A stretch of 64,000 nucleotides of DNA from contig JASLXV010000085.1 of NCBI GenBank assembly GCA_030740155.1, positions 46,041 through 110,040 of the forward strand, written 5' to 3'. Positions 15,652 through 38,706 of the stretch are shown piece by piece. The position numbers were made by a program, and so were the translations under genes. The stretch is from Dehalococcoidia bacterium. GTDB taxonomy: Bacteria > Chloroflexota > Dehalococcoidia > Lucifugimonadales > UBA3495. Numbering within the stretch: the stretch's first letter is position 1; every line of letters starts with the position of its first letter. The notes beneath the pieces are model-generated. The model did no database searches and was not told where the DNA came from. It saw only the letters and a program-made list of their open reading frames with translations.

Positions 15652-15681
15652 AAAGTACCACAAATAGTGCCTAGCTGTCAA
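15652..15681 (-). promoter_or_regulatory. Sigma70 promoter for the ilvB T-box leader
   Basis: Minus strand TTGACA-N18-TACTTT with an extended -10 TG, directly upstream of stem I. Confidence 0.7.
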
Positions 15682-15732
15682 TACGGGCTACTTGCGGGCT
15701 CGCCTCAATCCTGCCCCGCGTGTCCCTGCCGG

Positions 15733-16756
15733 TCAGACGCTCTCGGACGTGCCGGACCGCACTGCTATACCCATCCACCAGTGGCGTCCCTGACCCCTGC
15801 GGCGACGGCGGAAACCAAGACCGGTAAGGGCCCAAGCCAAAATTTCGTTGGCGCCACGGTTTTGCCCGGTTCTCATCGCACCATCTGAGATACGCAACGT
15901 AGAGGTCTCTAGCGGGCGCAGCCTGATCGGAGGATACGAGGCACGCCTCCGCTACGAACCGATTCAGCGAATTGGCCTCCGGCGGGCCGGTGACAGGGGT
16001 GCCGCCATCCGCATCCTCTGGTGTGTCCTCTCCCAGGCCGGGAGGCGGACCGGAATCCTCTTCCTCCAGGGGGGTTACCCTGCGCCTGCCTCCCACGGTG
16101 GTGCCCCGTTGGCCATCGAAGAGCTTGCGGCCGCGGGCCACGTTGATACCCGGTGAACGGGTCGCCGGTTCCCGGGCCTGATCCGAAGATTCTTGGGGCG
16201 CCTCTTCCCCAGTACGGAGCATCCAGGCGTTCTCGGTAGCCGGGTCGGTTAGCCAGTTCTTCACCACCCGTTGGAAATTGCCGGGGATCTCAACCCCCAA
16301 ACTGCTGGCGACGCGGTTCATGAAGTTGAACAAACAGGTAACCAGGACGATGGAAAGGATATCCTGCTCGAGGAAGCCCGCGTCCCGCAGCCCATCAAGG
16401 ACGCCCTCGGTCATGGAGGCCGGCTCCACGGTTACCTTCAGCGCGAAGTCCAGCATCTTGAGGTCTGGCGCGGACAGTTCCGCCTGAGTGTAGTCGGAGA
16501 GCAATTGGCTGGCCAGGCCCGAGTCGCCGGAGTGGCGGCGCACGAATCCTCCGTGGGTCAAGGCCCCGTACCGGCACTGGTTGGCTACTGCCACTACGGT
16601 GGCGATAGCCTCCTCTTGAACTCGGCTCAAGGTCGAACCGCCGAAGGCGAGGGTCTCGTTCAGCCCTTTGACCGCCTCCAACGCCTCGGGGTTCAACGAC
16701 AGCGCCTGGAAAATCGCGGGCAAGTCTGGCAGGTTTGCTTCTTCAATCCATGACAT
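15733..16756 (-). CDS. AhpD/CMD-like peroxidase-related protein fused to a primase/D5-type C-terminal winged-helix domain; 1-nt frameshift near 15830
   Basis: N-term: EAIATVVAVANQCRYG..H, FNFMNRVASSLG. C-term: RFVAEAC..DLYVAYLRWC..RNFG, continuing in another frame as LALTGLGFRRRRRGQGRHWWMGIAV to TGA at 15735-15733. Confidence 0.75.
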
Positions 16757-16887: not shown

Positions 16888-17487
16888 TTGATTGGCGGTT
16901 TCCAAGGCCCAAAGAGTCCTGATGTGTACATACGCGACGTGGCGCTACTGCCCGCAGAGAAGGTAACCCATATCTTCTCCGCCGACCTGGGCCTCGCCGA
17001 CGAGACCCCGGAGGCCGGGCAGGCTTTGATAACCACCAACCGGCGCATTCTGGCCTTCACCAAGCGTGAAGGGCGCGACGTAACCTTCGTGGCCTTCGTT
17101 GAAGAGCTGAAGGGCGTGGCCGTGAAGGCCGCGTCCCGAAGGGGCGGATCGCTGCTTCAAAGCCTGCTGCTGGCGGCAGGAGGAATCCTCCTCTACGTGG
17201 CCTTCGCCTACTGGGTGACCGGCCGGATTGGCGGCCCGAACATTCCGATCCTCAACATGGACTTTGGGCCTTTCATTTTATTGATCGGGGCGCTGCTCGG
17301 CGCGGTATTCATCGGCCGGTACTTCTACAGTCAGGGAGATGGCTCGGTCACTTTCCAGGGAAGTAGCTGGAACTTTGTTTTCGCCTTCAACGGTAACCTC
17401 GCCAGTGAAGATATCTACCGGGTGGTCAACACGCTCTTTGCCACCCGCGACTCCTCCATCGGCTACTCGCTGCTCTGGAAAGACTGA
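16888..17487 (+). CDS. Hypothetical membrane protein (2 TM segments)
   Basis: TTG start after GGAGGAAG; two hydrophobic helices; LITTNRRIL is reminiscent of bacterial PH-like domains. Confidence 0.7.
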   Translation: MIGGFQGPKSPDVYIRDVALLPAEKVTHIFSADLGLADETPEAGQALITTNRRILAFTKREGRDVTFVAFVEELKGVAVKAASRRGGSLLQSLLLAAGGILLYVAFAYWVTGRIGGPNIPILNMDFGPFILLIGALLGAVFIGRYFYSQGDGSVTFQGSSWNFVFAFNGNLASEDIYRVVNTLFATRDSSIGYSLLWKD

Positions 17488-38407: not shown

Positions 38408-38429
38408 CCACGGGTTACATTGCTAAGAA

Positions 38430-38706
38430 ACCCGCTTAGAAAGGGAGTAGTAGGAGTAACCGTTCCCAGAGAGCCGGTGGTTGGTGGAAAACCGGTGAAG
38501 GCAATACTCCGAACTCGCCCTGGAGCGACCAGCCTGAACTAGAGTAGGGCGCGGCGGCTGGCACCGTTAACGGCCTTGGAGCAGTTCCGGCATCCGAGTT
38601 GGTAATTAGTCAGCCTCAAAGCTGAGTCATGACGACTGGATTCCCGGAAAATAAGGGTGGTACCGCGGGATCTAACGACTCGTCCCTTTGGGGATGGGTT
38701 TTTTTG
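38430..38706 (+). promoter_or_regulatory. T-box riboswitch, Leu (CUC) specifier, with intrinsic terminator
   Basis: AAGGGAGUAGUAG, AGAGAGCCGG-GGUGGAA loops, GAA-CUC-G-CCCU-GGAGC (CUC at 38514-38516), CCGUUA, AAGGGUGGUACCGCG, terminator CUCGUCCCUUUGGGGAUGGG-U7. Confidence 0.93.

Follow-up and report, generated by a model that had tools for sequence, protein, structure and literature searches.

OhrR, OxyR and NemR are thiol-based one-component regulators. Winged helices of the primase type have been described in the replication proteins of mobile elements and in eukaryotic RFX. The relay residues of AhpD are described in the accessible part of PMC3141380; those of the peroxidase-related protein 2PRR are Glu74, Cys86, Tyr88, Cys89 and His93 (PMC4674687, available sections). 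According to the same sections, Sestrin2 keeps the first cysteine only (Cys125, Tyr127, Leu128, His132), reduces cumene hydroperoxide and not H2O2, and is sulfenylated. Sestrins are defined, in the part of PMC11429811 that was available, by duplicated AhpD domains and a DD-motif C domain. The winged-helix domains of P4 alpha and pRN1 ORF904 and the RFX domain are akin, and the isolated pRN1 ORF904 domain binds DNA, sequence specificity being undetected (PMC2777425, available sections). Term searches of PMC10530576 and PMC3417536 gave nothing on whether RFX came from bacteria or phages.

The window is a stretch of 64,000 nucleotides from a Dehalococcoidia bacterium (contig JASLXV010000085.1). 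At 15733..16756 (minus strand), it carries a gene whose intact allele encodes 340 aa (stop 15735-15733); as it stands in the window (shifted allele), the ORF spans 16756-15671 (minus strand) and encodes 361 aa. Fusions of this kind are carried by some marine SAR202 bacteria. The intact protein may be a regulator of a new kind, controlled by stress or by a ligand. It consists of three parts, all encoded on the minus strand: an AhpD/CMD-like peroxidase-related domain (aa 1-180; 16217..16756), all-helical in a high-confidence model; a disordered acidic/Pro linker (aa 181-258; 15983..16216; pLDDT <50); and a winged helix of the RFX/P4-origin-binding type (aa 259-334 of the intact allele; 15754..15982). 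In the window, the last part is interrupted by a one-base insertion in a GGG run (15831..15833, minus strand); it follows Leu308, within the recognition helix (aa 303-312). Upstream are a divergent conserved hypothetical gene (16888..17487, plus strand; no Pfam family above cut-off), which is a syntenic neighbour, and then a gene whose sequence reads as tsaD-like (18613-17576). Downstream, on the minus strand, are a T-box leader (RF00230, 15385..15645; 99.1 bits, gathering score 93) and a gene (15345-13645) that, read by eye, is presumably that of an acetolactate synthase (ilvB).

The preliminary description had proposed an AhpD/CMD-like domain with CRYG in place of CxxC or CxxU, joined by a disordered acidic/Pro linker to a P4/D5-primase-type winged helix and masked by a one-base frameshift. 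Each of these parts was recovered. CRYG, with a GGG codon, is read directly in the window, the linker is net negative in orthologs, primase/D5 profiles match the C-terminal region, and the +1 frame continues as claimed to the stop at 15735-15733. Intact fusions exist in relatives. Existing annotation of the fusion proteins is 'peroxidase-related enzyme' or 'hypothetical', nothing more. No published description of the fusion or of its family was found (most subscription papers and supplements lay outside the search), and no paper was found on SAR202, transcription factor and winged helix together. The defining features of the primase, RFX and Sestrin families exclude the fusion from all three. 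We think that it works like a one-component regulator, and its parts were not found described in that role in the literature searched.

Residues 12-155 match TIGR01926 (peroxid_rel) with 110.9 bits (cut-off 81.8). The modelled domain has the fold of the peroxidase-related AhpD-like proteins 2PFX, 3C1L, 6K40 and 2PRR (Z 17.5-19.3; for 3c1l, Z 19.3, rmsd 3.5, 150 residues aligned). With a score above cut-off, it shares the Glu/Cys/Tyr/His relay positions of TIGR01926 proteins and CxxU forms; unlike them, it has the second Cys or Sec replaced, the hairpin gone, and a linker and winged helix added. By spacing, E49, C61, Y63, G64 and H68, on the active-site helix pair (16553..16612, minus strand), are the relay positions of 2PRR (2PRR residues from the available sections of PMC4674687). 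Among 72 aligned fusions, E49 is kept in 72, position 63 is Tyr in 63, Phe in eight and His in one, and H68 is kept in 71; N144 and R148 of the old pocket are also kept (71-72 of 72), as is a second cysteine, Cys141 (68/72). Position 64 (codon GGG, 16567-16565, minus strand; the former Sec position) is Gly in 68 and Ser, Glu, Ala or Asn in one each, never Cys; the CxxC/CxxU dyad of TIGR01926 proteins is thus absent. Cys61 (codon TGC, 16576-16574, minus strand) is kept in 66/72 and replaced in six separate terminal lineages (five Ser, one Tyr); it is also Ser in an unfused ortholog (G008). The first Cys of Sec paralogs is kept in 25/25, a difference from 66/72 that is not significant (p 0.33).

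In the closest paralogs, C-R-Y-UGA precedes a perfect hairpin; in the window, the corresponding SECIS-like hairpin (16537..16555, minus strand) is decayed. The hairpin was found at 16/16 Sec-type vs 0/17 non-Sec loci, and at 23/25 of a wider Sec set. In the CxxU AhpD-like selenoprotein it lies 12 nt after the UGA and is very conserved (L103-L116, L132-L157). Paralogs with an in-frame TGA occur at 106 places in 201 genomes of the SAR202 family; none was found in G000. Judging from these comparisons, the AhpD domain arose by duplication of a selenoprotein and has lost Sec (CxxU to CxxG) together with its SECIS-like hairpin. The single-Cys motif of the preliminary description is present, and its origin is corrected to selenocysteine loss in a paralog. 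In a quick tree of AhpD domains (intact allele, genome loci, 30 fused and 20 unfused sampled proteins), rooted with 12 Sec rows, all non-Sec proteins are on one side of a branch (support 100) and divide into an unfused group (88) and a fused or long-tailed group (82). The ilvB protein tree, for which sequence was obtained from 14/18 loci, separates fused from unfused carriers (9 vs 4, support 89). From both trees, Sec loss first, a single fusion and vertical inheritance would most simply account for the data, though the unfused group may instead have lost a winged helix that it once had. Since unfused CxxG forms occupy the same locus, the one-Cys state probably preceded the fusion.

The Sestrin2 N-terminal domain is alike in its AhpD fold, in a first-Cys-only Cys-x-Tyr...His site and in the use of an enzyme fold in signalling, as far as the available sections of PMC4674687 describe it. 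Unlike Sestrin2, the fusion would derive, convergently, from a bacterial selenoprotein, and its output is a DNA-binding domain; unlike Sestrins in general, it has a single AhpD domain, no Sesn-C and no DD motif. It may serve as a bacterial test case of whether a Sestrin-type one-cysteine site acts as a sensor.

For residues 260-307, the matches are to Pox_D5 over its first half (24.7 bits when scored as a separate piece; gathering score 21.4) and, at the profile end, to positions 258-304 of TIGR01613. Matches to RFX (PF02257) are below the gathering score (14.9 and 16.9 vs 27 bits). The nearest solved folds of the C-domain model are RFX5 (8ZJR; Z 10.1, rmsd 2.3, 77 aligned), RFX1 (1DP7; Z 8.8, rmsd 2.1) and the P4 origin-binding domain (1KA8; Z 7.9); RFX1 is also the best PDB sequence match of the winged-helix profile (E 0.03). 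Its Arg-rich beta-hairpin wing aligns to that of RFX1 and, unlike it, is three residues shorter in that alignment. Between the winged helix and a primase, identity is 41% (hhalign 99.3%). The C-terminal winged helices of P4 alpha, pRN1 ORF904 and D5-type primase-helicases (PF03288) are alike in sequence and fold; the fusion differs from these proteins in being chromosomal and, on the trees above, vertically inherited, in lacking primase and SF3 helicase domains, and in its own wing signature, RRRRGxGRHWWxG. No primase, D5_N or SF3 helicase domain was found in Pfam and NCBIfam scans of the protein. Kinship with eukaryotic RFX is probably through a shared primase-type ancestor. In the 72 fusions, Q303, G307 and R319 are invariant and W327 is kept in 71. 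On its fold and this conservation, we consider it quite likely that the intact protein binds DNA.

A second protein, of about 285 aa, ends with the same winged helix (G000:C54; L021:4899-5753). This sister domain has the same nearest folds (RFX5, RFX1, P4 origin-binding domain) and near-identical recognition residues. The sister gene is downstream of a zinc-type alcohol dehydrogenase gene at 13/15 loci. Its N-domain is confidently modelled, helical, without a Pfam family and weakly HEPN-like (Atlas label 0.87; Z 7.5-7.7 among helical look-alikes); no RxxxxH motif was seen in it. A profile of both winged-helix types matches 182/200 genomes of the SAR202 family, mostly once each, and 6/286 genomes elsewhere in the order, weakly. 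In a search of 1.84 billion representatives, full-length single-domain matches above about 90 bits were of these two architectures; fragments and one other arrangement (P0202) fell in the same range, and primases scored lower. In a tree of 116 domains (40/77 fusion, 45/66 sister, all 31 long primase-type; 73 columns), which is based on a short alignment and a bootstrap not fully settled, support is 100/96 for the fusion clade, 87/76 for the sister clade and 97/83 for both against the primases. These primases were chosen by the two-family profile, so closer outgroups are unlikely to be missing. The preliminary description had proposed a domesticated mobile-element domain. Domestication and the primase type stand; fresh capture does not, as a near-core gene of the chromosome carries the sister domain, and the domain is thus long domesticated. 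Recent capture from a phage or plasmid was rejected on the tree and the genome distribution of the domain and on IMG/VR, where the five matches to the wing pattern are weak and the two inspected are one short chance frame. SAR202 bacteria are abundant in the dark ocean, and few studies deal with how their genes are regulated. A bacterial family encoded on the chromosome in some nine tenths of the genomes of the SAR202 family would be a second, independent domestication of this domain, and the near-core sister gene may be a more important object than the fusion gene. This winged helix is also used in other proteins that are not primases (P0147, P0202, P0175, P0201, P0205, P0227), among them an ECF-type sigma factor with three copies of the winged helix, a 271-aa protein with a SAR202-like wing, and proteins made of tandem winged-helix copies.

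A search with the intact allele gave 144 matches. Among the 120 listed, 69 have a complete winged helix (69 of the 85 long-tailed non-Sec homologs); in another 16, also long-tailed, it is partial or missing, and the other 35 are short and unfused, two of them of 187 aa. By these sequences, the intact fusion appears as a family of about 70 clusters restricted to SAR202 Dehalococcoidia. Both domains are conserved in 72 aligned fusions; the linker is variable and acidic (40-238 aa, net negative in 71/71 orthologs measured). From four pairs, two values being not computable, dN/dS is 0.06-0.26 for the winged helix, 0.09-0.28 for the AhpD domain and 0.47-0.75 for the linker, which points to purifying selection on both domains. 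In 201 genomes of the SAR202 family, 16 places have a non-Sec gene whose AhpD domain contains no internal stop; two further copies, in G003 and G019, are broken. The fused locus is present in eleven genomes of 6/27 genera: as one ORF in six, split over contig ends in one, and interrupted in four, including that of the window. GTDB-wide, eight of the 80 loci kept have a winged-helix match, all recorded as Chloroflexota or Dehalococcoidia. The tsaD and ilvB neighbours are nearly always present at non-Sec loci and never at the Sec-type loci examined. The fusion locus is conserved between housekeeping genes, with no phage, plasmid or integrated-element location. In the sister species G001, a genome 90% complete with an IS and a contig end at the locus, this query detected no fusion gene, and the divergent hypothetical gene was not found either. 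The ESM Atlas gave no usable match for the fusion and PADLOC no match.

The intact alleles and the about 70 clusters thus carry a sensor-type and a DNA-binding domain in one chain. The reading that we place first, tentatively and at a little below an even chance, makes the intact protein a DNA-binding regulator of the one-component type, encoded on the chromosome and gated via the remnant pocket. The Sec codon and the hairpin are gone from a duplicate of a CxxU selenoprotein; this duplicate stands upstream of the ilvB T-box and, in one clade, carries a winged helix taken earlier by the family from a phage or plasmid primase-helicase. The AhpD member would thus record the order of events from selenoprotein duplication, through loss of Sec and hairpin, to gain of a DNA-binding domain. 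The AhpD domain may oligomerise like its solved relatives, bringing together several winged helices on long flexible acidic tethers, and the Arg-rich wing may read DNA in the RFX manner. The Glu49/Cys61/Tyr63/His68 pocket would sense an organic hydroperoxide through Cys sulfenylation, or a small ligand, and the signal would alter the oligomer state or the masking of the basic wing by the linker. A complex prediction of two AhpD domains and one winged helix scored 0.01, a result taken neither for nor against this reading. The logic proposed is that of OhrR, OxyR and NemR, in which Cys oxidation in the sensor controls DNA binding; unlike in these, the sensor fold is unrelated and the winged helix is of a different class.

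The regulator reading is favoured by several observations: the nearest folds (RFX5, RFX1, P4) are proven DNA binders; wing and helix residues are conserved, with low dN/dS in both domains; the isolated homologous domain of pRN1 ORF904 binds DNA (PMC2777425, available sections); a first-Cys-only site is active in Sestrin2 (PMC4674687, available sections), and E49, C61, Y63 and H68 are kept here; there is no primase or helicase domain, the neighbours are housekeeping genes, and fused and unfused carriers separate in the ilvB tree. It is weakened by the six losses of Cys61; by the position of Sec, second in the paralog motif, a hint that the lost residue had been the ancestral nucleophile; by the pRN1 domain, without sequence-specific binding in the available sections of PMC2777425; by broken winged helices, commoner than in the sister family; and by operator searches that found no target site. 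No conserved upstream motif was seen by eye in 14 non-Sec genes or 15 sister-family genes, and upstream regions of the fusion gene are not conserved across genera. X-box-like sites numbered 22 between genes vs 13.4 expected (crude gene mask), P4-iteron matches were not enriched there (12 vs 26.5 expected), and the over-represented intergenic palindromes of G000 are REP-like repeats. One such REP-like family has 73 matches to GTGGT-N11-ACCAC and, with others, dominates the intergenic dyads.

The missing operator, the lost Sec and hairpin, the six independent losses of Cys61 and the near-identical recognition residues of both families would also fit a pseudo-enzyme scaffold, in which a redox-dead AhpD domain only oligomerises winged helices. 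The product would then bind DNA constitutively, in the nucleoid, in replication or in segregation, or it would work with, or compete against, the near-core sister protein at sites that both use. We regard this as rather unlikely, since E49, Y/F63, H68, N144 and R148 are kept at 71-72 of 72, beyond the needs of a pure scaffold, and since unfused forms are conserved too. The persistence of unfused CxxG forms at the same locus indicates that the AhpD domain has a role without DNA binding, which counts against the regulator reading.

Less probable still is a DNA-tethered enzyme, either a selenium-free one-Cys alkyl-hydroperoxide reductase or a reductive dehalogenase like AhpD-fold Bmp8, which a winged helix of no sequence specificity would anchor to the chromosome. 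Its site is of Sestrin-A type, Cys141 (68/72) could resolve the cycle, short unfused proteins exist, and Bmp8 is among the fold matches (Z 14.6). The Cys61 to Ser changes argue against it, as do a wing conserved as tightly as that of a sequence reader and a Sec-type paralog listed in eight of the genomes that carry a non-Sec gene, by which catalysis would often be covered.

A wider reading, in which the SAR202 family domesticated a primase-type winged helix and built a small RFX-like system from it, is speculative and rather doubtful as a whole. The near-core factor and its AhpD paralog, a de-selenised Sestrin-like sensor, would read one DNA motif; hydroperoxide would gate the AhpD form, and recurrent loss of the wing would switch the gate off.

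Such losses recur. The winged helix is broken or missing in 16/85 members of the fusion family (among the 120 listed) vs 3/120 of the sister family, a comparison inflated by kin and partial genes, in which long-read errors or contig ends may account for some of the breaks. One linker residue is the shared end of 13 of the 15 listed members of another cluster; in G321 (L091:1501-2850), an in-frame TAG in the linker, which may be a nonsense mutation or a read-through site, is followed by an intact in-frame winged helix. The unfused ortholog of G019 (L023:4462-7170) is interrupted by about 2.7 kb with transposase-like frames, which we take to be IS66-like and ISAs1-like. In each of the two largest clusters (162 and 84 members), most of the 15 members listed are intact. 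From these two patterns together, the DNA-binding function appears to be under long-term selection and dispensable in some populations. A decaying accessory gene, nearly neutral after a former role and lost piecemeal, would also produce the frameshift in 10/13 members of the window protein's cluster, the shared linker stop, the IS-interrupted copy in G019 and the failure of this query to find the fusion gene in G001; it is a poor explanation of the mostly intact large clusters, of the low dN/dS and of retention in six genera, and we hold it to be improbable.

The preliminary description had treated the frameshift as a mere mask of the gene. It is instead a segregating allele, null for the DNA-binding domain by its position. 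The extra base is one G of the minus-strand GGG 15833-15831. The 90% cluster of the window protein has ten shifted and three intact members; the latter (P0009, P0012, P0017; 340 aa, four contig records) and locus L041 carry the corrected frame in nature. The shifted tail occurs in 10 distinct sequences and 31 contig records, which are not independent samples, with differing flanking SNPs. Three DNA runs from three different studies divide two to one: X10 (depth 5.45; near-identical to the window, of which it may be the source) and X13 (depth 9.24) align to the window with no gap, and X12 (depth 13.4) has one base fewer at 15831. A scan of metagenome contigs, which may have omitted close records, gave one locus, L041, intact; it differs from the window by one G fewer and two substitutions, so that natural intact and broken alleles three bases apart form a ready control pair. 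The substitutions S95P and D171G are found on both intact and shifted alleles, indicating recombination or recurrence. The extra G is a natural allele and not an error: sequencing error was rejected on the cluster members, the runs and L041. An assembly error, or a programmed +1 frameshift restoring the protein, is hardly credible although the shift sits in a short homopolymer, since the shifted tail recurs in those varied sequences and, in two separate studies, in contigs from their runs, since relatives with an intact frame do without recoding, and since no slippery site was recognised by eye.

Across the break, the natural intact allele matches phage primase C-termini (PHROG 1156, residues 262-334, E 5e-9). 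In the model, the break falls within helix 303-312 and removes strands 316-320 and 324-332, leaving the shifted protein without a wing; the extra G is thus predicted to destroy half of the recognition helix and the entire wing. The shifted allele ends in an out-of-frame 53-aa tail (15671..15832, minus strand), just past the ilvB -35 box. It would amount to a sensor domain with a non-binding tail, that is, a natural loss-of-DNA-binding allele, and most sampled copies in this species have the DNA-binding part broken by this natural one-base insertion. As this allele makes up the majority of sampled records, the regulator would be dispensable in this population. The one RNA run gave no contig over the gene and is uninformative on expression.

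The downstream T-box/ilvB unit has its own promoter (15652..15681, minus strand: TTGACA 15681-15676, 18 nt, extended TACTTT). Its TTGACA is present in all 14 loci examined, one of them without a fusion gene directly upstream; a consensus promoter scan found no promoter and missed this one. The promoter proposed in the preliminary description is therefore real by conservation, and the argument that the corrected stop clears it is weak, since the intact ortholog at L098 stops a few bases before TTGACA. No conserved site near the promoter was found across the loci compared, so adjacency is taken as synteny only. On this ground, ilvB was rejected as a regulatory target; for a Sestrin-C-like branched-chain amino-acid sensor, an idea drawn from the ilvB neighbourhood, no evidence was found. 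In G001 (L118:1900-2269), the ilvB promoter is intact, with other sequence and a transposase-like start upstream at the contig end. The specifier of the ilvB T-box, read from the Rfam alignment, is apparently AUC (Ile; 15557-15555, minus strand). A second T-box leader is present in the window at 38428-38690 (plus strand; 116.4 bits).
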